Part shown: positions 3,529 through 60,711 of the stretch, piece by piece
Layout of the letters: each line of letters opens with the position of its first letter
Position numbering within the stretch: the stretch's first letter is position 1
Assembly (NCBI GenBank): GCA_963812135.1
Contig: CAWETU010000005.1
Coordinates: 96,001 to 160,000, forward strand
DNA from: Vulcanimicrobiota bacterium
GTDB taxonomy: Bacteria > Vulcanimicrobiota > Vulcanimicrobiia > Eremiobacterales > Eremiobacteraceae
Direction: 5' to 3'
Length of the DNA stretch: 64,000 nt
The notes under the pieces: model-generated
What the model was told of the DNA's origin: nothing
The model's database searches: none
What the model saw: only the letters and a program-made list of their open reading frames with translations
Made by a program: the position numbers and the translations under genes

Positions 3529-6264
3529 TCAGAGCTCGAGGACAGCGTCCACCATCGAAGCGTCAGGTTCGAAGGCGCTCGTGAAGCCGAGCTCCTTGCA
3601 CACGCGCAGCATCGCGCTGTTGTCGGACAAGATATGGCCGACGATGCGACCAACTCCCTCGGCGCGCCCGATATCGATGAGCCGGCGCAGCAGCTCTCGG
3701 CCGAGCCCGTGGTGCTGAAACTTGTCGGTCACCACGAGCGCAAACTCCGCCTCGTCCCCTTCGTGCGATTTGATCAGCCTGCCCACCGCAACGATCGACG
3801 GTTGGTCCCCTGCCTGGGGCAGCGCGACCAGCGCCATCTCACGATCGTAGTCGATGAAACACGAGCGGATGAGACGGCTGTGCGCGACTCGCGCGTCGAG
3901 ACGCACGACGTGGGCATAGCGACGGTAGACACTGCTCTCCGAGAGGGTCTCGTGGAATCGCCGCAGCAGCGCTTCGTCGTCGGGCCGGATCGGACGGATG
4001 AAGAACTCGGTGCCGTCCTGCGCGGTCCAACGGCCTTCAAATTGCCGTGGATATGGCCGGATCGCCAGCTTCGGCAGCGCGCTTTCGAGCACGGCCGCGT
4101 CATGGAGCACGACGCGCGCGTCGAGCGCGATCACGCCGGCCGCTGAGGCGAGCAACGGATTGATATCGAGCTCCTTGACACGCCGCTGCTCGCTGACGAG
4201 CCTGCTCACGTTCACGAGCGTGCGCTCGAGCGCCGCGATGTCCACCGGGTCGTGGCCGCGCGTGCCGCTCAGCGCGCGGAAGATCTTCGTGCGCTCCATG
4301 AGCTGTCTGGCAAGGGTCGACGTCAGCGGCGGCAGGCCGAGCGCGCGGTCCTTGAAGACCTCGACCAATGTGCCGCCGAGGCCGAATAAGAGCACGGGAC
4401 CGAACTGGACGTCGACGCTCGAACCGACGATCAGCTCGTATCCCTCGCGCCGGATCATCGGCTGGACGGTCACGCCCTCGAAGGCGTTCGGTCCGCCCGC
4501 GTCGCGCGCCGCGCGTTCGATGGCGGTGTACGCCGCTGCAGCTGCCGCTTCGTCGACAATGTCGAGGGCAACGCCGCCGACGTCGCTCTTGTGCGATATT
4601 ACGTGCGAGTGCAGTTTGATGGCAACGGGGAAACCCATCGAGCGCGCAGTGGCCGATGTCTCGAGCGCCGACGTGGCGAGCGTCGTGGGCACCGTTGGAA
4701 TGCTGTAGGCGGCGAATAGCGATTTCGCCTCGATCTCCGCCAACAGCGTCCGCCCCTGATCCGTTGCTGCCGCGATGATCTCTCGCGCGCGCCGGCGATC
4801 GATGCCCTTCTCTTCCTGCTCGACGGGCGTCTCGTAGAGGCTGCGCAGCGTGTCGTCGTAGCGCCACATGTAGTTGAACATGCGGCTCGCGGTGTCAGGG
4901 TACGGCACGGTTGGGATGCCGGCTTTGCGCAAGCGCTCGTCGCCGCTCGACGAACTGCGGCCGCCCAGCCAGCTCGCGAGCACCGGCTTTGCGGGCACGT
5001 GCGCGTACGGTGCGAGCGCGCGCGCGATGTCGTCCGACTCGGAGACGCCCTGGGGCGCGAAAATGACGAGCACGCCCTCGACGCCGTCGTCGGCGCTGAT
5101 CGTTTCCATGGCGGTCGCGTAGCGGCGCGCGTCGGCGTCGCCGAGGATGTCGACCGGATCGTTGCGGCTCCATGCGGGCGGCAGGAACGATGAGAGATGC
5201 TGCATGGTCGCGGAACCAAGCTGCGCGACAACACCACCGCCCTCGACGAGCGCGTCGGCGGCCAGCACGGCAGGTCCGCCGGCGTTCGTCAGGATCGCGA
5301 GCCGTTTGCCGCGCGGCCGCGGCTGGCGCTCGAGCACTTCGGCCATGAGGAACAGATCTTCGATGGCGTCGACGCGCAGCACGCCGCAGCGCGAGAACGC
5401 CGCATCGAGCACCGCGTCGCTGCCGGTCAACGCGCCCGTATGCGATGCCGCGGCCGCCGCGCCCGCGTCGCTGCGTCCGGCTTTGATGACGATGATCGGC
5501 TTGACCAACGCGACCTCGCGCGCCGCCGACATGAACGAGCGCGCATCGCCGACCGATTCCATGTACGCGATGATGCTCTTCGTCTGCGGATCGTCGCCGA
5601 GATAATAAAGGATGTCCGCCCAGCCGACGTCGAGCATCGAACCGACCGACACGAACCGGCTGAAGCCGAAGTCTTGGTCGAGACTCCAGTCCAGGATCGC
5701 GCTGCCCAAAGCGCCGCTCTGGCTGGCGAACCCCAAGCTGCCTGGCCGGGCCGGCGCCCGCGAGAACGTCGCATTGAAACCCTTGCCGGGCGACATCACG
5801 CCGAAGCAGTTTGGACCGATGACGCGGATGCCGCTCGCGCGCACCGTCTTCTCTATGCGCTGTTCGAGCTCAACGCCGGCCGGGCCGATCTCGCGGAACC
5901 CTGCCGAGATGATGATCGCGCCGCGCACGCCCGCCGCGACGCACTCTTCCACGACCGACGGAACGCTGGGCGCGGGCGTGATGATGATCGCGACGTCGAC
6001 ATGCGCACGGATCGCGCCGACGCTCGGATAGGAAGGCCTGCCAAGCACCGTCCGCTGCGCCGGGTTTACCGCGAAGACATCGCCGGAAAACGTGCCGTCG
6101 GTGAGATTTTCGAACACGCGCCGTCCCACGCGGCCGGCGCGCTCGGTCGCGCCGATCACGGCGACCGATTTCGGCTCGAACAGCGTCTCGAGCGGTTGTG
6201 CACGCACGCGTGTGACATCATGCACGGGTTCGGCGAGCGACGGCTGCACGGGATCAGGCGGCAT
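3529..6264 (-). CDS. NDP-forming acyl-CoA ligase-like domain fused to C-terminal GNAT (Pat/PatZ-type protein lysine acetyltransferase)
   Basis: [30 protein letters not shown]-grasp [19 protein letters not shown] with IRPIRPDD and FQHHGLG. Confidence 0.9.
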
Positions 6265-48162: not shown

Positions 48163-49506
48163 GTGGCCCGCAACGATCTACGACCGCAAGCGGCAGCGCC
48201 GCCGCCCGACGCGCTGCCCGGCACTTTCGCTGCACGCGCTATCATGGAACGGCTGTTCGCCGGCGTGCGCGCGCCGATCGCAGTACGCCTTGCCGACGGC
48301 ACCTCACTGCACGCCCCCGCCGGCCCCGCTGACACCACCGTCGTCATCCGCCACCCGGGCGTCATCCGCTCGCTCTTGACGCGCACGTCCGATCTCGCAG
48401 CGGGCGAGTCTGTGGCGCGCGGAGAGATCGATGTCCTCGGTGACGCCGAAGGCGCGTTCGCCGCCTTTGACGAGGTCGCGCGCGTGCGCAGCGCCGCCGA
48501 CTGGGCTTCGATTCTCCCCGCCGCTGCCAGGTTGCCCGCACCGCCGGCGTCTGCGGCGCCGGAGCGCTCGCGCGGACCCGCTCGGCTCCGCGGCCGGCTG
48601 CATTCGCTCGACCGTGACCGCGCCGCGATCGCCTATCATTATGATGTGTCGAACGAGTTCTATGCGTTGTGGCTCGATGGCGACCTGACGTATTCATGCG
48701 CGTATTTCCGCGACGCGTCCGAGACGCTCGATGAGGCGCAACGCAACAAATACGAGCATATCTGCCGCAAGTTGCGTTTGTCGCCGGGGGAACGCCTACT
48801 CGACATCGGCTGCGGCTGGGGCGGCCTCGTGCGCTACGCGGCTCGCGAGCGCGGCGCGATCGCGGTCGGCATCACGCTGAGCCCGAAGCAGGCGGAGTAC
48901 GCGCGCGCGCGTATCGCCGCCGAAGGCGTGGCAGAACGATGCCGCATCGAGCTCGTCGACTACCGCGAGATGGCGCCGCTCGGCGCGTTTGACAAAGCGG
49001 TGAGCGTCGGGATGGTTGAACACGTCGGTGACGCGCTCTTGCCCCTCTACTTCGATGCGGTCGCAAGTACCCTCAAGCCGGGCGGTCTGTTCCTCAATCA
49101 TGGCATCGTGACGCAAAAGCCGAAGCGGCGCGGTCTCGGCGCCCGCTTCTTCCCGCACGGCTCGAAGTTCATCGAGAGATACGTCTTCCCTGACGGCGAG
49201 TTGCCTCACTTGTCGGCGATGAGCGAAGCCGCATTGGAAAGCGGCTTCGAAGTACGCGACGTCGAGAATCTGCGCGAGCATTACGCGTTGACGCTGCGCT
49301 GCTGGGTCGGCGGTCTTGAGTCGAACGAAGCGCGCGCTCGCGAGCTGGTCGGTGATGAGACCTACAACGTCTGGCGTTTCTACATGGCAGGGTCCGCGCA
49401 CGGCTTCGCCACCGGCCGCCAGGGCCTGGTCCAAATGTTGCTCGCCAAACCGATGCTGGACGGACGCGCGGCGGTGCCGCTCACGCGCGCCGACCTGTAC
49501 GCGTAG
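48163..49506 (+). CDS. cfa: Cyclopropane-fatty-acyl-phospholipid synthase family methyltransferase
   Basis: HYDVSNEFY, TYSCAYF, LLDIGCGWG, SVGMVEHVG, YVFPDG, HYALTL. Confidence 0.9.
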   Translation: MARNDLRPQAAAPPPDALPGTFAARAIMERLFAGVRAPIAVRLADGTSLHAPAGPADTTVVIRHPGVIRSLLTRTSDLAAGESVARGEIDVLGDAEGAFAAFDEVARVRSAADWASILPAAARLPAPPASAAPERSRGPARLRGRLHSLDRDRAAIAYHYDVSNEFYALWLDGDLTYSCAYFRDASETLDEAQRNKYEHICRKLRLSPGERLLDIGCGWGGLVRYAARERGAIAVGITLSPKQAEYARARIAAEGVAERCRIELVDYREMAPLGAFDKAVSVGMVEHVGDALLPLYFDAVASTLKPGGLFLNHGIVTQKPKRRGLGARFFPHGSKFIERYVFPDGELPHLSAMSEAALESGFEVRDVENLREHYALTLRCWVGGLESNEARARELVGDETYNVWRFYMAGSAHGFATGRQGLVQMLLAKPMLDGRAAVPLTRADLYA

Positions 49507-49541: not shown

Positions 49542-49988
49542 ATGGTCATCGAGCGATCCTTTCACATCGCGGCACCGCCCGACGCGGTGTGGGCGTTGCT
49601 CAAAGACGTGCCGCGCCTGTTGCCGCACATCCCCGGCGCGCAGTTGATCGAAAGCATGAGCAACGGCGCGCACACCGCCGGCGTCACGCTGCATCGCGGT
49701 CCGCTGCAGGGCACCTACGATCTCGGCGTCACTGTCCAATCACTCGACGATCAGGCACGCACTGTGGTCGTGCGCATCACGGCGGCAGACGTCGCGGGTC
49801 GCGGCAGCGTTGACGCGACGGTCACGGTCGGCGTCCAGCCCGCTCCGGCGGGCTGCGAGATCTCGTTGCGCGCGGATCTCCAAGGCAGCGGTGTCACTGC
49901 GGACTTGGGCAATGGTCTTGCGAACGCGGCCGCGCCGGACTCGGCGAATGCCTTCGTCGCGAATCTCGAGCGGACGCTAGGCCGCTAG
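49542..49988 (+). CDS. CoxG/SRPBCC family protein
   Basis: SFHIAAPPDAVWALLKDVPRLLPHIPGA. Confidence 0.8.
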   Translation: MVIERSFHIAAPPDAVWALLKDVPRLLPHIPGAQLIESMSNGAHTAGVTLHRGPLQGTYDLGVTVQSLDDQARTVVVRITAADVAGRGSVDATVTVGVQPAPAGCEISLRADLQGSGVTADLGNGLANAAAPDSANAFVANLERTLGR

Positions 49989-52795
49989 ACCTTCAGCTTT
50001 GCGATAAGCTCGGCGCGCGACGCCGCGCCCATCTTCGTCAGCACCGATGACACGTGCGTCTCGACGGTGCGCTCGCTCAGGACGAGCTGGTCGGCGATCG
50101 CTTTGTTCGTCTTGCCTTGTGCGAGCAGGTCGCAGATCTCGCGTTCGCGCGCGGTCAGCTCTCCCTTTGCGCGCCCGCGCTTGTTCACCGGGTTCACGAT
50201 CGCAGACGTGCGGCGCGCGTCGCGGTTCGCGCCGATCCGTTTGTAGAGCTCTAACGCTTGTTCGTGTTCACCGGCGATCTCGAGCGCGCGTGCCTCGTGG
50301 TGCGGCCACGACATCGCGTGGAACAGCGTGACGGCTTCGGCCGCGTGCGCGGCGGCGGCGGACGCATCGCCTGCTCGACTTGCTGCGAGCGCATCGAACA
50401 ACGCTAGGTTGGCCAGCGTCGAGCGCGGCGATTGGCCGGCACGCAGCGCGCCAGCGAGGAGCTTGCGAGCACGCGCCGCATCCTCGACCGCGCCGTGTGC
50501 GGCGACGGCGATGCACAGCTCGTCGGCATCGCCAAAACCTGGCGGGGCGCCGATGCGCTCGAGCGCCTCGATCGCGCTGTGCAGCAGCGAGGCGGCTTCC
50601 GCCGGTTTCCCACGCGCCAGATAGTGCTCCGCGAAAGCCGCGGTCGAGCCGATCATGATCGACGACCCCGACGCCAGGGCGAAGTCGAGCAGTTCGGGGC
50701 GCGCGCAGCGAGCGACCAACTCGTCATCTTCCATCAGTAGTCCGACGCGGATGCCGGCGTTGACCATGAACATCTGAAAACCGGGCGTTTCGACATTCGC
50801 GGCGAGCGCCTGCTTCACGAGATCGCGGGCCTGCGCGAGCTCACCAGTCACGCGCTTGGCGTGCGCCATCGCCACGAGGATCCACACCGCGGTCAGGCCG
50901 CCGATGCCCTTGTCGCGGATGATCTCACGCGCTCGCTCGAAGACTTGCGCGGCGAGATCGCTTTCGCCGGCTTGCACCATAGAGATGCCGAAACTGCCCC
51001 AACACCGCATCGCGTTGCGGAAGTCCCCGCCCTCGATCGCGAGATCGGCGGCGGCTTGCGTGTCCTCGAACGCCCGCGCGGGATTACCGAGACCTGCGTG
51101 GCTGCCGGCGCGCATGACGAGAAAGTTGATCCGCGTCTCGGTCGCGCGTGGACCGGTTGCCTGATCGGCGAGCGCCATGTGCCTCGACAGCTGCTGCGGA
51201 TCCCAGCGGAATTCAGTATAGAGCCGCATCATCTGCACGTGGGCGTCGAAGTAAACCGGATGCGCCGGATCGTCGTCGACGAGGTCAAGCGCACGCTGGG
51301 TGAAGGCGAACGCGTCTGCCGTGTGGCCGTACGCGCCGTGCATCCATGCCAGATCCAAACATGTCCTGGCTGCGCGTTCGCGGTCGCCGGCAGCTTCGTA
51401 GTATGCGAGCGCAGCGTCGGCCGCTCGCTTGGCCGGCTCTTCCAAGCCGCTCTGGTGGAACGCGCTCGCGAGCTTGAGGTTGAGCGCGGCGCGGTGAGCG
51501 TCGTCGCCGACGGTCGATGCGATAGCCCGCTCGAGGTTAGCAGCGGCGTCGCGGTACGCGAACACTTTTAGCGCGGCGTCGGCTGCCAGCTCATTGTAGC
51601 GCGCGGCACGCTCGCGCTCGTGAGCCTGCCACCAATGGTAGGCTAGCTCGGGGGTATGATCGCCTTCCGTGTGCGCTTCGAGCGCAGTGGCGATCTTCAT
51701 GTGGAGTTGACGCGCTTCGCTCGCGAGCAGTTCTTGATAGATCGCTTGGCGCGTGAGCTCGTGCTTGAATGCGAATTGCACGGAGCCATTGCTCTCTTCG
51801 ACGATCAGCGACAGTTCGATGGCGTGCTTGAGCGCCTGCGTGACCTCTTCCAAAGGAAGTCCGGCGATTTCGGCGAGGAAACCCGCCTCAAAGCGGCGCC
51901 CGATAATAGCCGCGTGCGAGATGGCGCGCCGTTCCGGCGGGTCGAGTGCCGCGAAGTGTTCGAGCACCGCTTCGCTGAGCGTCGTCGGCAAACTGCGCGG
52001 TTCGTCGTCGCCGCTCTCGATCACGGTCTTCAGCAACTCCTCGGCGAACAGCGGGTTGCCTTCCGCGCGCGCGCAGATCGCACCGATCGTCGTCTCCGAA
52101 AGTCGCGCTCGATCGGCCAGCGCGTGGAATACGAGCTCGTGCATCTCCGCGTCGCTAAGCGCCGGCAGTTCGATGCGCCGGACGCCGGCTTGGCGCGTCA
52201 GCTTGGCCGCGATCGAACGCAGCGTTTTCGCGCGCTTGAGCATATCGTTGCGATACGTCGCGATGACCAGCAGCCGAGCGCCGGCGAGGTTGGCCGCGAG
52301 ATGCTGGATGAGCTCGAGCGTCGCGCTATCAGCCCAGTGGATGTCTTCGATGACGACGACCGTCGGTTGCGCCGAGCCAAAACCGCGCAGCGCTTCGACC
52401 AGCGCGTTGAACTGCCGAAGCTTGTCGGTGACCGGCGCGGTGGCAGACGCACCAGGCGCATCGAGTTCGGGGATCAGATTGGCAAGGATCGCGCGAACCG
52501 ACGGTGCGGCTTTGAGTACCGCTGGGTCGACCTGCGCCAGCGACGAGAGCGCGGCGAGAAACGGCGCGAACGGCGATTGGACGTATTCGAGGCATTGGCC
52601 GACCGCGTAACGCGCTTCGGCTGACGGCAAATTCCCGCAGAACTCGAACGCCAGGCGGCTCTTGCCGGCTCCCGCGTCGCCGTGTAGGAGTATCAGGCTC
52701 CCCGATCCGGCCTTCGCGGCGTCATACGAGCGCTCGAGCAGCTCCAGCTGCGGCGCCCTCCCGACCAGCCTGTGCGCTTGCACGGAGTCTGCCAT
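49985..52795 (-). CDS. Large ATP-binding LuxR-family (LAL/STAND) regulator
   Basis: LVGR, Walker A GDAGAGKS, Walker B VIEDIHWAD, GNPLF, TPR-like middle, LuxR HTH LTAREREI...SERTVETHV. Confidence 0.93.
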   Translation of the reverse strand: MADSVQAHRLVGRAPQLELLERSYDAAKAGSGSLILLHGDAGAGKSRLAFEFCGNLPSAEARYAVGQCLEYVQSPFAPFLAALSSLAQVDPAVLKAAPSVRAILANLIPELDAPGASATAPVTDKLRQFNALVEALRGFGSAQPTVVVIEDIHWADSATLELIQHLAANLAGARLLVIATYRNDMLKRAKTLRSIAAKLTRQAGVRRIELPALSDAEMHELVFHALADRARLSETTIGAICARAEGNPLFAEELLKTVIESGDDEPRSLPTTLSEAVLEHFAALDPPERRAISHAAIIGRRFEAGFLAEIAGLPLEEVTQALKHAIELSLIVEESNGSVQFAFKHELTRQAIYQELLASEARQLHMKIATALEAHTEGDHTPELAYHWWQAHERERAARYNELAADAALKVFAYRDAAANLERAIASTVGDDAHRAALNLKLASAFHQSGLEEPAKRAADAALAYYEAAGDRERAARTCLDLAWMHGAYGHTADAFAFTQRALDLVDDDPAHPVYFDAHVQMMRLYTEFRWDPQQLSRHMALADQATGPRATETRINFLVMRAGSHAGLGNPARAFEDTQAAADLAIEGGDFRNAMRCWGSFGISMVQAGESDLAAQVFERAREIIRDKGIGGLTAVWILVAMAHAKRVTGELAQARDLVKQALAANVETPGFQMFMVNAGIRVGLLMEDDELVARCARPELLDFALASGSSIMIGSTAAFAEHYLARGKPAEAASLLHSAIEALERIGAPPGFGDADELCIAVAAHGAVEDAARARKLLAGALRAGQSPRSTLANLALFDALAASRAGDASAAAAHAAEAVTLFHAMSWPHHEARALEIAGEHEQALELYKRIGANRDARRTSAIVNPVNKRGRAKGELTAREREICDLLAQGKTNKAIADQLVLSERTVETHVSSVLTKMGAASRAELIAKLKV

Positions 52796-52824
52796 CCATC
52801 GCCCCCGTGTGCGCGGTTCGCTCT

Positions 52825-53622
52825 CTACGACACCTCTTCCCCGACTGCCGGCTCGGGTTTGGGAGGGATGAACAGCGTCGAGCCGGTGGTGATATCGGCC
52901 TGCTCGAGCGCCGACAGCGTCGTGCGTTCGACGGTCGGAGCGAAGCCCGAGTATTGCGACGCCTCGTAGACGATCGCCGGATGCCCCGCGCCGTAGCGCG
53001 CGCTCAAGTGCTTCGCGAGACGCGCGACGCCTTCTCGGCCGTACTCCATCTTGAAACTTGGATCGCCGGTGACCGCGACTTGCAGCAGCACGAGCGGCGC
53101 CGTCGTGCTGAATGCCCGATCGTTGAGCAGCAGATCGGATGCGTCGAAGATCTGCAGTCCGTCAGTGGCCGGATCGATGTCAAGATCAGCGAGCAGACAG
53201 TCGATCGACGACACTGCCGGCAAGAGCGCGGCGGAATACCCCTCCGCGCGCGCGCGGTCGAGCGCCGTGTGCATCGGATATGCGAAGATCCCAGGATGAC
53301 CGTAGGCGACGACGCACACCTTGGCGCCGCCGCGGACGTATGTCAAGATGCGCGCGACCATCGCTTCGTACGTGTCGATCCGGGGCTTCGCGACGTCGTA
53401 AAGCTCGCCAAGCGATTCGCTGTTCGGATTCAACTCGACGACGCTTCGCGCCGCAACAGCGTCGCCCACCAAGAACAGCACTTTGTCGGCGCACTCTATG
53501 TGCCAGCGCGCAGCAGGCGTGAGATCGCGTCCGACGTCGATGCCTGCGCCGACGATCGTAAGATCCGGCAGAGGCGGCGTGGACCAGGCTATTAGCTCGT
53601 CCCGCCGGTGCCCGGTGGCCAC
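52825..53622 (-). CDS. Borosin peptide alpha-N-methyltransferase (split-borosin, SonM/OphMA-like; tetrapyrrole methylase fold)
   Basis: LTIVGAGI, LYDVAKPRIDTYEAM, AYGHPGIF, LPAVSSIDCLLADLDIDP, FDASDLL, LVLLQVAVTG, YEAS, STLFIPP; exact start uncertain. Confidence 0.9.
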   Translation of the reverse strand: MATGHRRDELIAWSTPPLPDLTIVGAGIDVGRDLTPAARWHIECADKVLFLVGDAVAARSVVELNPNSESLGELYDVAKPRIDTYEAMVARILTYVRGGAKVCVVAYGHPGIFAYPMHTALDRARAEGYSAALLPAVSSIDCLLADLDIDPATDGLQIFDASDLLLNDRAFSTTAPLVLLQVAVTGDPSFKMEYGREGVARLAKHLSARYGAGHPAIVYEASQYSGFAPTVERTTLSALEQADITTGSTLFIPPKPEPAVGEEVS

Positions 53623-53852
53623 GGCCGCGGCGGACCGTACGTGAACGGATGCATTTCGGGTGTCTTAGATTCGTGATGTTCCTTTTTGACGTGCTCTTCG
53701 ATATCTTTGACCGATCCCCACAGGAAGGCTCTGATCTGCAATTCGCTGAGCCCGTACCCCTCGAACAGTTCGAGCACTTCTCTATAGAGGCGCTCCGAGA
53801 ACTCTTTGTGTTTGGTCTTGTTGAGAAAGTCGGTGAAAGGTGTTTTGCTCAC
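53592..53852 (-). CDS. Split-borosin precursor peptide (borosin-binding domain plus C-terminal core), 86 aa
   Basis: GTG start with AAAGGAG RBS; FTDFL...YGLSELQIRAFLWGS helical leader; tail MHPFTYGPPRPWPPGTGGTS; directly upstream of the methyltransferase. Confidence 0.8.
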   Translation of the reverse strand: MSKTPFTDFLNKTKHKEFSERLYREVLELFEGYGLSELQIRAFLWGSVKDIEEHVKKEHHESKTPEMHPFTYGPPRPWPPGTGGTS

Positions 53853-53991
53853 CGGAGAACTCCTTTGCCGAAAAAGCAAAATCGACGACGCTTGAGAGCT
53901 CTGCGTTGGATTAGGTGCCCGGCGTTCCCCGATTTTTTGAAATGCCCTCCAAGGGCAAGAGTGGCCTTTCCGCTCAGCGAAACCGCGCCGG

Positions 53992-56025
53992 GTGAAGACG
54001 TCGGATTTCGTTATTGTCCTCGTCGCGACGCTTGTGTTGACTGCGCATCCGCGAGCCGCAACAAGCGCGGGCGCTCCGCTCGACCTTTCCACCCTGCGCA
54101 CCTACGTGGAAATTCCAAGCCTCGCGATCTCGCCGGGCGGCAGCCGCGTCGCCGCCGTCATCCAGCGTCAGAATTTCGCGACGAACAAATATGACGAGCG
54201 CATCGAGGTCATCGATTGCGTGACCCGCTCGCGCGTGACCGTAACGCCGACGAGCCACGCCATGTCCTCGCCGGCGTGGTCCCCCGACGGCACCTCTATC
54301 GCGTACATCGCCGATGCGACGGACGGCACCTCGCAAGTATTCGCGGTCCCCGCCGGCGGCGGTACGCCGCGCCGGCTGACGCACGCTCCGCGCGGCGTTG
54401 ACTCGTTCGCGTGGCGGCCGGACGGCATGGCGATCGCATTCGTCACAACCGACGCAGCGCCGAACGCGAAAGCGATCGCATCCGGCCTCGACGCATTCGA
54501 AGCCGGCGATCAAGATTACATGAGCAGCGCGAAGCCCACACCCGCGCATCTGTGGCTGCAAACCATCGCCGGGGGCTCACCGAAGCGGCTTACGGCCGGG
54601 CAGCACAGCCTGCCGATCGGTGAGCTGATCTTTCCGTTGCCAGAGGTCGCTCCGATGCCGTTCTTCGCCTGGGCACCGGACGGCAAGTCGATCGTCTTCG
54701 CGCGCATGGACAACGCATATAACTCTGACGCGGTCGGCACTGTGACGATGGTGCTCGACGTGGCGACGGGCGCCATGCGCAAGCTCACGAGCCACACGCG
54801 GCTCGAAGCAGGCGGCCTCTATTCGCCCGACGGCATGCGCATCGCGTACGCGTACGCACGCGGCGACGATCCGATGGCACAAGTGGTCATGATGATCGCG
54901 CCTGCGAGCGGCGGCGACGGCATCGCCGCCACGCAATCGCTGGACGTCGACGCGCTCGGCGCTCGCTGGTTGAGCGGCCACCGGTTGCTGGTCAACGCGT
55001 TCCAAGGTGCGCGCTCGCGGCTATTCATCGCGGGCGAGCATGGCGACACGTCGCGCGTCGACACGGGGGCGGTCGATCCTGTGCCCGGCACACTCGACGC
55101 GACGGGGTCGGGCCACATCGCGTTCGTCGGTTCGGAACCAGAGCGCGCGACCGAAGTCTACACGATGTCGTCGCCGTTCTCGGCGCCCGTCCGCCTCACC
55201 GACTACAACGCGCCGATCAATGCCCGCGCGCGCAGCAAAGTGCAAGCCATCACGTGGAAAGGCCCGAACGGTTTCTCAGAGAGCGGCGCGCTTTTCTACC
55301 CGCCCGATTTCGATTCGGCCAAGAAGTACCCGCTTGTGCTGCAGATCCACGGCGGTCCGACCGAGTCGACGATCGCCAGCTGGCGTGACACCGACTGGCC
55401 CGGCCTGCCGCAGTACATCGCCGCGCACGGCTATCTCGTGTTCTCGCCCAACTATCGCGGGAGCGACGGCCAAGGCAACGCTTATCAGATCGCGATCTTC
55501 AACGACGCAGGCGACGGCCCCGGACGCGACGTCATGGCGGGCATCGACGCAGTGAAGCGCCTCGGCAATGTGGACGAGACGCGCATGGCGGTGACCGGTT
55601 GGTCGTATGGCGGTTATATGACCGAGTGGATGATCACGCATTACGATGTCTGGAAAGCGGCGATGGCAGGCGCTGCACCCGCCGACGCGTTTGTCGACTA
55701 CTCGACGTCGGACTACAATGTGCTCGGGCGGCTGTATTTCGGCGGCGCGCCGTACGACTCGCCGGCGTTACTGCAAGCGTATCGCGATCAATCGCCGCTG
55801 TCGTACGTCGGCCAGGTCAAGGCGGCGACGCTGCTCATGCACGACTCGGGCGACGTGCGCGTGCCGGTCGTGCATTCGTACGAGTTCTATCAGGGACTCA
55901 AGGCACATCACGTCACGGCATCCTTTGTGGTCTATCCGGTCAGCGGGCATTACCCGGCAGACCCACTGCGCTCGGAGGATATTTACCGACGATGGGTCGC
56001 CTGGCTCGATCGATACTTGAAGTGA
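53992..56025 (+). CDS. Exported S9 (prolyl oligopeptidase clan, S9C-like) peptidase
   Basis: Signal peptide, WSPDG propeller repeats, IHGGP, PNYRGS, GWSYGG nucleophile, DVRVP Asp, GH His. Confidence 0.93.
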   Translation: MKTSDFVIVLVATLVLTAHPRAATSAGAPLDLSTLRTYVEIPSLAISPGGSRVAAVIQRQNFATNKYDERIEVIDCVTRSRVTVTPTSHAMSSPAWSPDGTSIAYIADATDGTSQVFAVPAGGGTPRRLTHAPRGVDSFAWRPDGMAIAFVTTDAAPNAKAIASGLDAFEAGDQDYMSSAKPTPAHLWLQTIAGGSPKRLTAGQHSLPIGELIFPLPEVAPMPFFAWAPDGKSIVFARMDNAYNSDAVGTVTMVLDVATGAMRKLTSHTRLEAGGLYSPDGMRIAYAYARGDDPMAQVVMMIAPASGGDGIAATQSLDVDALGARWLSGHRLLVNAFQGARSRLFIAGEHGDTSRVDTGAVDPVPGTLDATGSGHIAFVGSEPERATEVYTMSSPFSAPVRLTDYNAPINARARSKVQAITWKGPNGFSESGALFYPPDFDSAKKYPLVLQIHGGPTESTIASWRDTDWPGLPQYIAAHGYLVFSPNYRGSDGQGNAYQIAIFNDAGDGPGRDVMAGIDAVKRLGNVDETRMAVTGWSYGGYMTEWMITHYDVWKAAMAGAAPADAFVDYSTSDYNVLGRLYFGGAPYDSPALLQAYRDQSPLSYVGQVKAATLLMHDSGDVRVPVVHSYEFYQGLKAHHVTASFVVYPVSGHYPADPLRSEDIYRRWVAWLDRYLK

Positions 56026-56611: not shown

Positions 56612-59600
56612 CTAGTACTTCATGCTGATGAAGAACGTGAATTGGCGCGGCGGTCCGAACGCCTCGTTCTCATACGGGTGTGGGCCGTAGTTGTTCTGGA
56701 ATGGCTCGCACGCGAACGCGTTGACCACACCGGGTGGGCAGGCATTGGTGTTGACGCCTGAGCTTGGACCGTAGCCGCCAAGACCGTTCGGCACGTAGTA
56801 CGGGTTGCTACCCCCCGACGAAAGCCCCGATCCGAGGGTCGGCGGCGCTGTATAGTTACCCGTCAGGTTGAACACGCGGACGCCCACGGTGAAATTATTA
56901 GGCCCGTGACCAAGGTCTTGCGACACGCTCATGTTCACGAGCAGCACCGGCGGGCTGCGCAGCGATCCCGGGTCGTCGCCTTCGGGCGTGCCGCGCGACG
57001 CGACGATGTTGGGCGCGAGCATCGTGCCCGGGTTCGCGGGGTCTGTGAAATAGTATGCCTGTTGTGAGGTGGTCGCGGCGAGGTCCGTGTTCAGCACCTG
57101 ATATGGGATCGTCGCGGTCGGGTCGCCAGTGCAGGTCGGCACCTGGCCGCACGTGACGAAGACGAACGTCTTCTTGCCGACGCCATACGGGTAACCGTCG
57201 TTGAACGGCATGTCGACCGACGCGTGGAATCCCTGGCGCGAATCATAGGCGAGGATCAGATTCGCGGTGAGCGGCGACACGTACGACACATGGAAGAGAT
57301 GCCCCGCGGCCAGCGCCGCGTTGTTGACGCTTGGGAAGAAGTCGCTGTTGTAATTTGCAAGCGTGTTGTCGTACGTCGCGTTGAAGAAGCCCGAGAAACC
57401 GAACGTGGCCTGTTTTTGGATCGCGAACTCGACGCCCGTGTTCGAGTTGATGCCCGCGTTGATCGACCGCAACGGCCCGAACACCGGCGTACCGCTCGGG
57501 AGATTGAACAAGAAGTTGGAGTTGGTCACGACGTAGTTCGTGCCGCGCCGGTAATAGGGTGTGATCTTCAGGTCGAGGCCACGCCCGAAGTCATGTTCGT
57601 ACGAGAAATCGTAGTTGATCGCGTGCTGCGGGGTCACAGGAGTGAACGATTGAAAATTGTTCGTGTTGAGGTCTGCGAGCACTTGTTGGTAGAGGTTTGA
57701 GAAACTGTTGCAGTTGGCGTTCGCGTTCGCCGGATCGACGCCGTTCACGCAGGTCGGGCTGTACCCCGGCAGGGGGACGAAACAGCCGCTCGCAATCGTG
57801 CAGTTCTTCAGCGATGGATCGAGGCGGTATGAGTCTTGCACCGCCGAGAGCGGCACGAACTCGATGTTCGTGCCATACGACGCGCGCACGACGTCGCGCG
57901 CGGTGAGCTGGAACGCCACGGCGATGCGCGGGCTCAGCTGCGACGGCCGCGTCACGTCCGAACCGAGCGCTTGCCCAGGCAGCTCTACGATGTTTCCCGC
58001 GTCATCGGTGAAATAGCTGACGTTCTGCGCCACCGCATCTGCCGGCAGGCCGATGACCTCCAGGTCGTAGCGCAAACCGTACGTCACCGTCAGTTTGTCG
58101 TTGGGCTGCCAACGATCTTTCACGTAGACGTCGTAACGATGGATCGGCGAATCCGAGTACGATGTACTATCGGGGTAGGTGTTGAGCGGCGCGTTGGGGC
58201 CGCTCGTGGGCAGCGTCGTGCCGAGCAGGTTGTTCAGCTGCGCGTTGAGCGGGCCGATGTAACAGCCACCCACGCCGGATCCGGGATTGGACGTGGCCAG
58301 CAGTTGCGGGCAGCCGATGCCTTCGAGCGGCTCGACGATCGAGGCGAAGCTCGGAAACGCGGCCTTGAACAGACTTGAATAATACGTGTCGGTCGCGCCG
58401 AATCCGATTTCGTGGTGACTGCTGATCTGATTGTCGTAGTCGAACTGCACCCCTAGCCCGACCGTGTTCAGGTCTTGATACGTGTCGGTGAAGGATCCGA
58501 AATCGTACGGGTACGACGAGATCAGATTCTCGCTCGTGCGGAAGAGCGTCAGATCGCCGAAGCTCGACGGGCTGAACTGGCGCTTGTAGTTGAGTTTGTC
58601 GATCGTCGAGTTGAAGGTCTGTGTGTCGACGGAATTGATGAACTGGTTGACACTCGCTTGACCCGGAAACAGCGGATCGAACGTGCTCAGGGAGAGGCAC
58701 GGCGTCGGATCGCACGGGAAGCCAAGATCGTTCGTCCCAGCCTGGACATTCCCGTTGAGCGATGCATAGGGAGCCTGTGCCGGATTGATGAGCGTCTCAA
58801 ATCCCAACGTCGAGCCGCTGAGGTTGCTCAAGACCTGAATCTCGTTGCGGTTGTCGCTGCCCCAGCGATAAAAGAAATTGCCGATGATGTCGTTGAGCGT
58901 CGCGTTGTTCTGGAATCCGAGCGTGAGCGGCAACAACGTATTGGTGTCGCCATAATCAGTCGCGCCCCGTTGGCCGCCAAACGACAGATAGTAGCTGAAG
59001 CGGTTGTCGGGAGTTCCGCTGCCGTAGTCCATCGAGATCTCGTGGTCGTACTGGTGCCAGCCGAGGCGGAAGGTGGCCTGCCCTGCGCCCGGATACGAGC
59101 CGCGCTTGACGACTTCGTTGATGACGCCCGAGTTGGTGTTGCCGGTCGCGACGTCATAGCCACCGGTCGCCAACTGCACGCTGCGCGCACCGTTGAGGGT
59201 GGCAGCGTTGAGGAATTGGCCGGTGACCGGATCGGTGTTGTCGATGCCGTCGAGCTGATAGCCAAGATCGTTCTCCGCGCCCGCGCGGATCACCGGATAG
59301 CCGGCGTAGTCGGTCGTCACGCCCGGCAGCGAATTGAAGGCCTGGAACCCGTTGAGATCCTGCGGAGTACCGTTGATATCTTGCAGCGTCCGCTGGTTCA
59401 CCGTATAGCTGCTGGCTGTCGTCGCGGGTTGGACCAGCGACTGCGCGCTGCGTACGGTCACGGTGCCGAGCGATCTCGGCCCTGTCTGCAGCACGACATC
59501 GATGCGTCGCGGCTGATCTTGGGTCACGGTGACGCCCGGAACCGAGTTGGTCTGGTAACCCGCCTTGGTGAACGTTATGATGTAGGTGTCGAGCGGCAGG

Positions 59601-59818
59601 CCGATGAGCGCGTAGAATCCGTTGCCCCCGCTCACCGTCTTGGCGGTGCCGGAGGGCGCGGACGCCGAAACCTGAACACCGGCAAGCGGATGGCCCTGGG
59701 CATCGCTCGCGACGCCGTTGATGGCGCCCGTCGTGCCCGCAGTCGCGGGCGCGACGAGTGCGACGGCAGCGATGCAAAACACAAAAGCGACGAAACATAT
59801 GCGGATCTGCTGACGCAT
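56612..59818 (-). CDS. TonB-dependent receptor with N-terminal carboxypeptidase-regulatory-like domain
   Basis: Signal peptide, GTTGAING...PLAGVQV, plug SLPGVT/IRAG/SGVINEVVKRG, barrel GLRYD, SPRIA, terminal FFISMKY; GGGGAG RBS before ATG 59818. Confidence 0.88.
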   Translation of the reverse strand: MRQQIRICFVAFVFCIAAVALVAPATAGTTGAINGVASDAQGHPLAGVQVSASAPSGTAKTVSGGNGFYALIGLPLDTYIITFTKAGYQTNSVPGVTVTQDQPRRIDVVLQTGPRSLGTVTVRSAQSLVQPATTASSYTVNQRTLQDINGTPQDLNGFQAFNSLPGVTTDYAGYPVIRAGAENDLGYQLDGIDNTDPVTGQFLNAATLNGARSVQLATGGYDVATGNTNSGVINEVVKRGSYPGAGQATFRLGWHQYDHEISMDYGSGTPDNRFSYYLSFGGQRGATDYGDTNTLLPLTLGFQNNATLNDIIGNFFYRWGSDNRNEIQVLSNLSGSTLGFETLINPAQAPYASLNGNVQAGTNDLGFPCDPTPCLSLSTFDPLFPGQASVNQFINSVDTQTFNSTIDKLNYKRQFSPSSFGDLTLFRTSENLISSYPYDFGSFTDTYQDLNTVGLGVQFDYDNQISSHHEIGFGATDTYYSSLFKAAFPSFASIVEPLEGIGCPQLLATSNPGSGVGGCYIGPLNAQLNNLLGTTLPTSGPNAPLNTYPDSTSYSDSPIHRYDVYVKDRWQPNDKLTVTYGLRYDLEVIGLPADAVAQNVSYFTDDAGNIVELPGQALGSDVTRPSQLSPRIAVAFQLTARDVVRASYGTNIEFVPLSAVQDSYRLDPSLKNCTIASGCFVPLPGYSPTCVNGVDPANANANCNSFSNLYQQVLADLNTNNFQSFTPVTPQHAINYDFSYEHDFGRGLDLKITPYYRRGTNYVVTNSNFLFNLPSGTPVFGPLRSINAGINSNTGVEFAIQKQATFGFSGFFNATYDNTLANYNSDFFPSVNNAALAAGHLFHVSYVSPLTANLILAYDSRQGFHASVDMPFNDGYPYGVGKKTFVFVTCGQVPTCTGDPTATIPYQVLNTDLAATTSQQAYYFTDPANPGTMLAPNIVASRGTPEGDDPGSLRSPPVLLVNMSVSQDLGHGPNNFTVGVRVFNLTGNYTAPPTLGSGLSSGGSNPYYVPNGLGGYGPSSGVNTNACPPGVVNAFACEPFQNNYGPHPYENEAFGPPRQFTFFISMKY

Positions 59819-60048
59819 GCTGCGGCTCCCCCTACGAACAGGCGTGTGCCGCCAAGTTGACCACGCTGTCATGCGCTTCCTTGGCACGCGCGCGGCGTCG
59901 ACGCGATGCCGTAACATCGCTCTCATATTTCGATGATGGATTTTATCCATTCGGCGAGTCGCTGTTCCAGAGCCACCCGCTCCGAATGTTATGCGTTGAC
60001 CCCTGGCCTCGCCATCGAGGCGAACCGCCGCGTCGAGACTAACCTTCG

Positions 60049-60711
60049 GTGGTGAGCGATACACGTGCGCCCTTGAAACACGCGGATCCCGATCATACGG
60101 TCCGGCGCCTTGAGGCGTTCAGCGACATCGTCATCGCGTTCACACTCTCGGAGCTCGCGTTCACCTTGCAGATCCCGCACAGCACGCGCGATCTATTCGC
60201 ACACCCCGCCCATGTCTTGGTGTTTCTAGGGAGTTTCGTTTTCGTCTGCTCGTTCTGGTGGCTGCACCATCAGGTGTTCGCGCGCTTCTTCTATCCCGAC
60301 ACGCCTGGCATTCTGCTCAACTTCGCGTTTCTCGCCGCGGTGGTATTCGTCGCATATTCGATGCTGCTCGTGACGAAGGTCGGCGATCTGCAGGCGCTTG
60401 GGGTCTACGCGCTGAGTCTTGGAAGCGCGTATGTCCTCATCTCCATCCTTTTTGTGAAGGGAGCGCGCGATCCGCGCCTGGTTATCGATGAGGAGGCGCG
60501 CAGGTCGGGGATGGAGCGGGCGTTGCGGCTCGGCGTCGGGGGCACCGTGATGCTGGCCTCGTTCGCGCTCGTGTTGCTTGGCCGAACACAGGAGGAAGTC
60601 ACTGGCCTGTGGCTGCTCTCTGTCGCGCTGATCATCTTCTTAGCCGCGCGAGACCGAATCGCTCGTCGCCGGCGCGAGCGAGCGATGGTCCAACCGACGA
60701 CCGGTGCGTAG
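60049..60711 (+). CDS. TMEM175/DUF1211 family putative K+ channel
   Basis: RRLEAFSDIVIAF (RxxxFSD), SFWWLHH, about 6 TM. Confidence 0.88.
   Translation: MVSDTRAPLKHADPDHTVRRLEAFSDIVIAFTLSELAFTLQIPHSTRDLFAHPAHVLVFLGSFVFVCSFWWLHHQVFARFFYPDTPGILLNFAFLAAVVFVAYSMLLVTKVGDLQALGVYALSLGSAYVLISILFVKGARDPRLVIDEEARRSGMERALRLGVGGTVMLASFALVLLGRTQEEVTGLWLLSVALIIFLAARDRIARRRRERAMVQPTTGA

Follow-up and report, generated by a model that had tools for sequence, protein, structure and literature searches.

A split borosin locus was identified in a 64,000-nucleotide stretch of Vulcanimicrobiota bacterium DNA (contig CAWETU010000005.1 of assembly GCA_963812135.1, positions 96,001 to 160,000; hereafter the window). 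Judged from its sequence, the locus is a genuine but fairly ordinary pair of the known class 3 (type IV) split borosin family, in a soil bacterium of a little-studied phylum, with a borosin-type alpha-N-methyltransferase of 265 amino acids (aa) encoded beside a separate 86-aa precursor. We consider it very likely that the locus is such a class 3 (type IV-like) unit, including the docking and methylation scheme set out below. Its local peculiarities are a borosin-binding domain (BBD) that lies past standard models, a conserved Pro/Trp-rich precursor tail, and a strictly co-located regulator of the large ATP-binding LuxR (LAL) type. A preliminary description of this DNA had proposed a split borosin with a separate precursor, which proves right because the enzyme is of borosin type, the small open reading frame (ORF) has a diverged BBD, and in the genomes searched this ORF occurs only beside the enzyme gene. 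The three genes are co-directional on the minus strand and lie head to tail in the order precursor, enzyme, regulator, with the following features:

53860..53865, minus strand: Shine-Dalgarno sequence AAGGAG, 7 nt ahead of the precursor GTG, read directly from the sequence
53592..53852, minus strand: precursor gene of 86 aa, from a GTG start to a TAA stop
53661..53849, minus strand: predicted diverged borosin-binding domain, precursor residues 2-64, placed by the A4-A3 hhalign comparison and the A3-SonA match described below
53595..53660, minus strand: presumed core/tail, residues 65-86, PEMHPFTYGPPRPWPPGTGGTS, predicted disordered; presumed substrate by type IV architecture
53592..53622, minus strand: overlap of the precursor 3' end and the enzyme 5' end, 31 nt
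52825..53622, minus strand: predicted borosin-type alpha-N-methyltransferase gene, 265 aa, GTG start
49985..52795, minus strand: LAL-type regulator, 936 aa, separated from the upstream, co-directional enzyme gene by a 29-nt gap
53853..53991, no strand: divergent spacer between the precursor and an S9 peptidase gene, 139 bp

The methyltransferase and its active site

In Pfam the enzyme matched TP_methylase only (E-value 2.4e-18). When it was searched against all PDB chains with phmmer, the top 24 distinct sequences were all borosin alpha-N-methyltransferases, including SonM and OphMA (both E 1.4e-42), dbOphM (E 1.4e-41) and MroMA (E 1.8e-25), and the best non-borosin match was a precorrin-2 C20-methyltransferase at E 0.11. 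The resemblance to OphMA and SonM pointed out in the preliminary description is far past chance. Alignments to SonM and OphMA cover enzyme residues 20-255/259, with SonM residues 3-242 (of 263) aligned and only about 10 enzyme residues past the domain; neither a BBD nor a core is fused to the enzyme, which stands by itself, the arrangement by which type IV (class 3) borosins are recognised.

The sequence motifs claimed earlier are all present in the minus-strand 265-aa protein (LYDVAKPRIDTY at residues 74-85, YGHPG at 107-111, PAVSSIDCLLADLDIDP at 135-151 and LLQV at 179-182, with IDCLLADL at 140-147; YGHPG and IDCLLADL are motifs of the kind covered by the published BorosinMT models YGHP_v3 and DCLFAD_v3), and the OphMA motifs given for comparison (yydngksrlnty, fyghpgvf and pgvsaedclfadlcidp) are as written in the OphMA alignment. 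The Tyr/Arg/Tyr motif given as Y-x6-R-x3-Y is correct in its residues and wrong in its first spacing, the actual pattern being Y75-x5-R81-x3-Y85. Enzyme residues Y75, R81, Y85, Y107 and F113 align to SonM Y58, R67, Y71, Y93 and F99. In SonM, the Y58F, R67K and Y71F substitutions lower catalytic efficiency 14- to 98-fold, and the R67A mutant and the Y58F/Y71F double mutant have no measurable activity left (PMC8429565). All four mutationally tested SonM residues (Y58, R67, Y71 and Y93) are retained, as Y75, R81, Y85 and Y107. Across 40 enzyme homologues there is no variation at G108, H109, P110 or D141, and conservation reaches at least 90% at Y75, Y85 and Y107. By homology, the 265-aa protein is thus a predicted borosin-type alpha-N-methyltransferase with its catalytic residues kept.

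Close homologues are named 'precorrin-6B methylase', 'YabN...', 'siroheme synthase' or 'SAM-dependent methyltransferase' in the databases, in line with the tetrapyrrole-methylase mislabelling that had been predicted, and those deposited at NCBI carry the labels Candidatus Eremiobacteraceae and Eremiobacteraeota. The enzyme itself did not group with CysG/Cbi/YabN methylases: in addition to the PDB ranking, its NCBIfam scores were sub-threshold, at 36 bits for YabN (cut-off 525) and 16.6 for precorrin-3B (cut-off 391).

The precursor and its borosin-binding domain

The precursor alone gave no Pfam or NCBIfam match, and phmmer against the PDB returned only a lipase at E 1. A word-based search of 5.8 billion proteins retrieved the precursor itself and three relatives (87, 63 and 60% identity), and a locus of a Vulcanimicrobiota metagenome-assembled genome (L001), with an enzyme 50% identical to that of the window, encodes a 96-aa precursor relative (33%, alignment A4) in the equivalent position. 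Alignment A4 and its profile represent the window precursor family (eight members in the conservation counts). For comparison, ORFs directly upstream of the enzyme were gathered from 80 metagenome loci, and 25 canonical upstream precursors out of these were aligned as A3. Many of the gathered ORFs show the pattern LxxFLxxLxxDP...DP...M..AGL...LS.D...I, followed by a short, mostly aliphatic tail. The A3 ORFs are taken as canonical BBD precursors because the A3 profile matches SonA at E 2.5e-15 to 5.3e-15 and, at E 0.007-0.05, the BBD at the C-terminus of OphMA/dbOphM. Comparison of A4 with A3 by hhalign gave a probability of 96.6% and E 5.2e-10 over residues 2-64. Mainly from this profile-profile match and the gene position, we conclude that the 86-aa protein is a putative diverged BBD plus tail. 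In line with this, SonA heads the PDB matches of the A4 profile, at a non-significant E of 0.19. In an AlphaFold2 model of the precursor (mean predicted local distance difference test score, pLDDT, of 75), helices span residues 5-13, 16-32, 37-45 and 48-63 (pLDDT about 82), and the chain is disordered from residue 64.

The precursor tail

The 22-residue tail lacks an aliphatic run and is marked by a conserved Y-G-P...P-W motif. Residues Y72, G73, P74, P77, W78 and G84 are invariant in all eight family members, and six of them also share P75-R76. Because proline has no amide N-H, no more than 14 of the 22 residues are methylatable. A hidden Markov model search of 1.84 billion cluster representatives returned 17 proteins at E <= 0.001, so few that the precursor subfamily must be small; 16 of them are 74-119 aa long, mostly with a SKTPF-x-DFL start and mostly with Pro/His/Trp-rich ends such as PMHTW, PLHTW and PWPLSSW. 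P0051, a 1681-aa repeat protein with PWPAYPPN units, matches profile positions 46-87 only, read as the Pro-rich tail, and was rejected as a compositional false match. The tail is unlike the aliphatic tails of most gathered loci and unlike the cores reported so far; those reported earlier comprise repeats such as DVIELSSGGEL, TEVX and DVDV (10.1101/2021.12.24.474128). A proline-packed tail would test a backbone N-methyltransferase on an already conformationally constrained substrate, and a short, protease-resistant Pro/Trp peptide is a possible yield.

Two further kinds of upstream ORF were seen in the metagenome loci. Those of L022, L026, L027, L029, L073 and L036/L032 have aromatic/proline-rich ends (e.g., ...YYLIQWPIWPPA and ...IYYVVQWPNWPPSR) and no sequence kinship with the window precursor; with such tails on record, Pro/Trp/Tyr cores are not unique to the window genus. 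In 7 of the 80 loci (L018, L019, L044, L050, L052, L067 and L068), a long ORF of up to 344 aa with tandem FPQ(V/I)xPQ-type units ends just upstream of the borosin enzyme (e.g., L067 2852-3883). From their sequences these ORFs look like a multi-core precursor class, and the repeat was not met in those parts of the borosin literature that were consulted.

Gene coupling and co-occurrence

The enzyme gene had been described as directly following an 86-aa ORF with a strong ribosome-binding site. The AAGGAG sequence 7 nt before the GTG bears out the latter, and the two genes are not merely successive, as they overlap by 31 nt; the enzyme frame has no alternative ATG/GTG/TTG start ahead of the conserved LTIVGAG. 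G+C content falls from about 0.65 to 0.51-0.53 across the 5' half of the precursor gene and the 139-bp spacer. A simple scan of 49800-54200 found no sigma-70-like promoters or terminators, and the sigma-70 consensus may not suit this phylum.

Two soil-metagenome runs carry contigs related to the locus (90-99% identical). In the precursor ORF of these contigs, the four substitutions among the differences listed all fall at third codon positions, three being synonymous and one giving H68Q (codons counted by hand), and the only indel removes 3 nt from the variable linker and leaves the frame intact. A 1-nt insertion is found in the spacer upstream of 53852 and disfavours a longer, 169-aa reading of the small ORF. 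A 199-nt contig from an RNA (metatranscriptome) library covers 53548-53746, the precursor/enzyme junction, with one mismatch; it is a weak hint of a joint precursor-enzyme transcript, since DNA carry-over is possible and contigs give neither strand nor level, and gaps in coverage elsewhere in the stretch carry no information.

The cultivated member of the phylum Eremiobacterota/Vulcanimicrobiota is Vulcanimicrobium alpinum (PMC9758169). In a survey of 401 genomes sampled from this phylum (enzyme threshold E <= 1e-20), the enzyme was found in 68, namely in G000, in all six other genomes of the genus, in 14 of 29 other genomes of the family and in members of two further families, which extends the borosin family to this phylum. 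A single enzyme gene is present in the genome that the window comes from, which is 98% complete at 2.79 Mb in 6 contigs. The precursor profile was positive in six genomes. Five of these hold true loci (G000, G071, G087, G134 and G227), all from one genus, and in each of the five the precursor abuts the enzyme gene directly upstream; the match in G182 (E 6.1e-5) lies inside a 370-aa frame and was discarded as spurious. In a tree built from 29 enzyme rows, with two rows of unpublished genomes excluded and the L001 row identical to the G227 row, the six enzymes with the window precursor type form one split (support 99/94), and its sister is a same-genus enzyme with a canonical BBD precursor. The genus-limited loci and this split indicate that the precursor type arose or diverged inside one genus and travelled with its enzyme.

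The third gene of the unit encodes a 936-aa protein with Pfam domains AAA_16 (residues 9-178, E 4.3e-27), TPR_12 (562-627, E 8.3e-5) and GerE (880-932, E 1.8e-19), and this predicted architecture of AAA_16, a TPR middle and a LuxR/GerE helix-turn-helix (HTH) is that of LAL regulators. In all 14 enzyme-bearing genomes of the family, the best regulator orthologue (39-73% identity) is the gene directly downstream of the enzyme gene and shares its strand, or in 12 of 12 when G232 and G344, which are unpublished, are left out. For the phylum's other large family, only 2 of 15 fetched loci gave a regulator-like gene within 1.5 kb.

Proposed scheme and alternatives

In the scheme that we propose, the N-terminal 63 or so residues of the precursor would fold as a diverged helical BBD and dock on the 265-aa S-adenosylmethionine (SAM)-dependent enzyme, so that the unstructured 22-residue tail could enter the active site. 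One or more non-proline backbone amides would then be methylated, the candidates being Y72, G73, R76 and W78 or the variable stretch after the last helix, and a protease (none such was identified at the locus) would free a short Pro/Trp-rich N-methylated peptide. The precursor and enzyme genes may be translationally coupled, and the AAA_16-TPR-LuxR regulator would belong to the conserved unit and probably control it. What the analysis shows directly is the enzyme family with its catalytic residues, the homology of the BBD, the coupling of the genes, and their co-occurrence and co-divergence; binding, methylation and its sites, proteolysis, the product and its role are what we infer.

Several results weigh against this scheme. 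The seven best PDB sequences for the A4 profile are all SonA (SonA 3-49 aligned with precursor 7-52), at a non-significant E that is 0.19 at best (range 0.19-0.22), and LigA, the Pfam family name given to SonA by its PDB depositors, matches none of the eight precursor family members, compared with 12 of 25 canonical precursors. With the precursor model as query, SonA chains took Foldseek ranks 1-9 at weak E-values (0.8-3.7), and VIA-align placed SonA (Z 2.1-2.6) under an unrelated T4 portal chain (Z 2.9). Eight of the 22 tail residues are proline and there is no aliphatic run, while the gathered upstream precursors mostly terminate in one (e.g., VIVTIIVTV and ITVVVVIT). G211 and the unpublished G128 hold regulator orthologues whose upstream 1.4 kb lacks an enzyme gene, and no protease or exporter was tied to the borosin unit. 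A complex prediction with two copies each of enzyme, precursor and SAM (scores 0.00, 0.47 and 0.00) has no bearing either way.

Methylation could instead be a processing mark, as in SamA1/SamM1/SamP: the region after the BBD would be methylated, and a mark-dependent protease would free an unmethylated Pro/Trp-rich peptide. SonA is methylated at residues 63 and 65 (PMC8429565), and by linear distance from the BBD the equivalents in the precursor would be about residues 66-68, which fall in the variable stretch ahead of the conserved proline-packed motif. However, this distance argument is crude, the conserved motif still offers methylatable Y72, G73, R76 and W78, and no A1 aspartic peptidase lies near the locus, which leaves this alternative improbable. 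We assign a still lower probability, a slim one, to the 86-aa protein being a BBD adaptor or a regulator of the enzyme whose true substrate is encoded elsewhere. The atypical tail composition would suit such a role, and the 733 published borosin enzymes without an identifiable precursor make distal substrates conceivable (10.1101/2024.01.09.574750); however, tail residues that are invariant over relatives of 31-87% identity point to a function of the tail itself, the characterised class 3 systems all use a BBD-fused tail as substrate (10.1101/2021.12.24.474128; 10.1101/2024.01.09.574750; PMC11395268), and the genome holds one such enzyme gene and one such ORF. A reading of the enzyme as an ordinary methylase of the tetrapyrrole, YabN or RsmI type beside an unrelated small ORF, as its sole Pfam match and public annotations as precorrin or siroheme methylase would have it, is barely credible given the four solved borosin enzymes matched far ahead of any precorrin methylase, the YabN and precorrin-3B scores far under their cut-offs, and the retained catalytic Tyr/Arg/Tyr.

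A possible signalling role

Within the preferred reading, a split borosin unit with the tail as substrate, the methylated Pro/Trp-rich peptide might be the cognate ligand of the downstream regulator, and the three genes a RiPP (peptide made by the ribosome and modified after translation)-based autoinduction or signalling circuit; we regard this as rather unlikely. In such a circuit the peptide would be sensed through binding to the TPR region of the STAND protein, by analogy with RRNPP regulators and their short linear peptide ligands. If it held widely, such a role would explain borosin pairs beside TPR-bearing transducers with interchangeable outputs: a LuxR HTH here, in distant soil loci an adenylate/guanylate cyclase or a Ser/Thr kinase, and in Proteobacteria GGDEF with a periplasmic TPR, GGDEF being the commonest borosin neighbour at 56% (10.1101/2021.12.24.474128). 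The strict pairing with a STAND/LuxR regulator offers a testable handle on the purpose of bacterial borosins.

Among the 43 distant metagenome loci for which one flank is 2.5 kb or longer, an AAA_16 STAND protein adjoins the enzyme in nine, in varying orientation, and five more have a large neighbouring ORF that matches the LuxR end of the regulator. A Pfam scan of ten loci gave seven cyclase-AAA_16 proteins (six with TPR), one kinase-AAA_16 protein, one kinase-NB-ARC-TPR-LuxR protein (in L006, the single scanned locus of the latter five) and one ORF cut by the contig end. The adenylate/guanylate cyclase-AAA_16 proteins of the distant soil loci (about 1,050-1,150 aa) are convergent or divergent to the borosin enzymes, and in architecture they resemble the NCBIfam 'TOMM system kinase/cyclase fusion protein'. 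The ORFs that adjoin borosin enzyme genes are:

L078 3160-6387: cyclase-AAA_16
L034 1442-4606: cyclase-AAA_16
L062 2953-6177: cyclase-AAA_16
L021 4728-7985: cyclase-AAA_16
L046 3-3290: cyclase-AAA_16
L079 269-3541: cyclase-AAA_16
L077 76-3531: cyclase-AAA_16

Comparison with known borosins

The closest counterpart is the type IV (class 3) pair SonM/SonA of Shewanella oneidensis (PDB 7LTC and 7LTE; PMC8429565), whose product, Shewanellamide A, is the single bacterial one among the few borosin products known (PMC10549244). In both systems the enzyme, of about 265 aa, stands alone, aligns over its whole length and has the same active-site residues, and an adjacent gene encodes a short precursor in which a helical BBD at the N-terminus is followed by a C-terminal tail. 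Unlike SonA, the window precursor has a BBD diverged past Pfam LigA and direct sequence search, and its tail is Pro/Trp-rich, whereas that of SonA is Ile/Leu-rich. The signalling neighbour is a cytoplasmic AAA_16-TPR-LuxR regulator here and a GGDEF protein in SonM/SonA, and the host belongs to the Eremiobacterota as opposed to the Gammaproteobacteria. The type IV pair of Shewanella amazonensis (SamA1/SamM1/SamP, shewasin A) likewise has a BBD-fused precursor; there, however, a dedicated A1 aspartic peptidase reads the methylated leader (10.1101/2024.01.09.574750). Legionellales class 4 borosins also combine a split enzyme with a short precursor missed by standard BBD models. The window locus is not of class 4, which has no BBD anywhere in the cluster, because the profile-profile comparison detects one in the precursor.

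The fungal proteins OphMA, dbOphMA and MroMA (types I-III, class 1) share the methyltransferase domain and motifs with the window enzyme, but they hold enzyme, BBD and core in one self-methylating polypeptide, which is split here. In the fungal fused borosins, the prolyl oligopeptidase OphP cyclises the product. The locus does not amount to an omphalotin-like pathway with a conserved S9 macrocyclase.

The novelty claimed for the locus holds for its lineage, the precursor subfamily and the regulator linkage, but not for the split architecture, which is already known: split borosins are reported to be widespread, the predicted clusters numbering 1,600 to >2,600, with type IV making up about 79% and Gammaproteobacteria dominant (10.1101/2021.12.24.474128; 10.1101/2024.01.09.574750), and type IV (class 3) split borosins are predicted in >2,600 gene clusters (10.1101/2024.01.09.574750). 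NCBI-deposited relatives of the enzyme may already be in published borosin lists (Dataset S1 of 10.1101/2021.12.24.474128; Dataset 2 of 10.1101/2024.01.09.574750). In full-text literature searches, no link of borosins to Vulcanimicrobi or WPS-2 and no co-mention of borosin and LuxR was found; the one co-mention of borosin and Eremiobacter concerns an unrelated FkbM-type N-methyltransferase (PMC9259500), and among the matches listed for borosin and proline-rich all appear by title to be on other topics.

Other neighbouring genes

The remaining genes around the unit are:

53992..56025, plus strand: S9 peptidase (neighbour only), 677 aa, PD40 propeller plus Peptidase_S9 (Pfam E 1.6e-39), secreted-looking
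56612-60064, minus strand: 1150-aa protein, outer-membrane-like in composition, with a long leader at its N-terminus
49542-49988, plus strand: CoxG/SRPBCC protein, convergent to the regulator
48163-49506, plus strand: cyclopropane-fatty-acyl-phospholipid-synthase (CMAS)-like methyltransferase with a 147-residue N-terminal extension, convergent to the regulator

The S9 peptidase is adjacent in genus g1 only (G087, G071, where it is read as two ORFs, G134, G355 and L001/G227) and the roughly 6 kb upstream showed none in G278 or in five other genera (G381, G306, G041, G261 and G185); the two S9 matches in metagenomes are PD40 propellers without a Peptidase_S9 domain. Since their adjacency is confined to the genus, the S9 peptidase, CoxG-like and outer-membrane genes were excluded from the unit, and the CMAS-like and isochorismatase genes were likewise rejected as cluster members on genus-level synteny only. 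The 1150-aa protein gene lies by the S9 peptidase gene in L001, G087, G071 and G355. In G071, the S9 orthologue (L143 4019-6035, minus strand) is split into two overlapping ORFs, 4019-5068 and 4908-6035, which reflects either a frameshift or an assembly error. G355, which belongs to the same genus and has a canonical BBD precursor, carries a second BBD-like small ORF (L145 2605-2967, minus strand) about 2.5 kb off, by the S9 peptidase gene.

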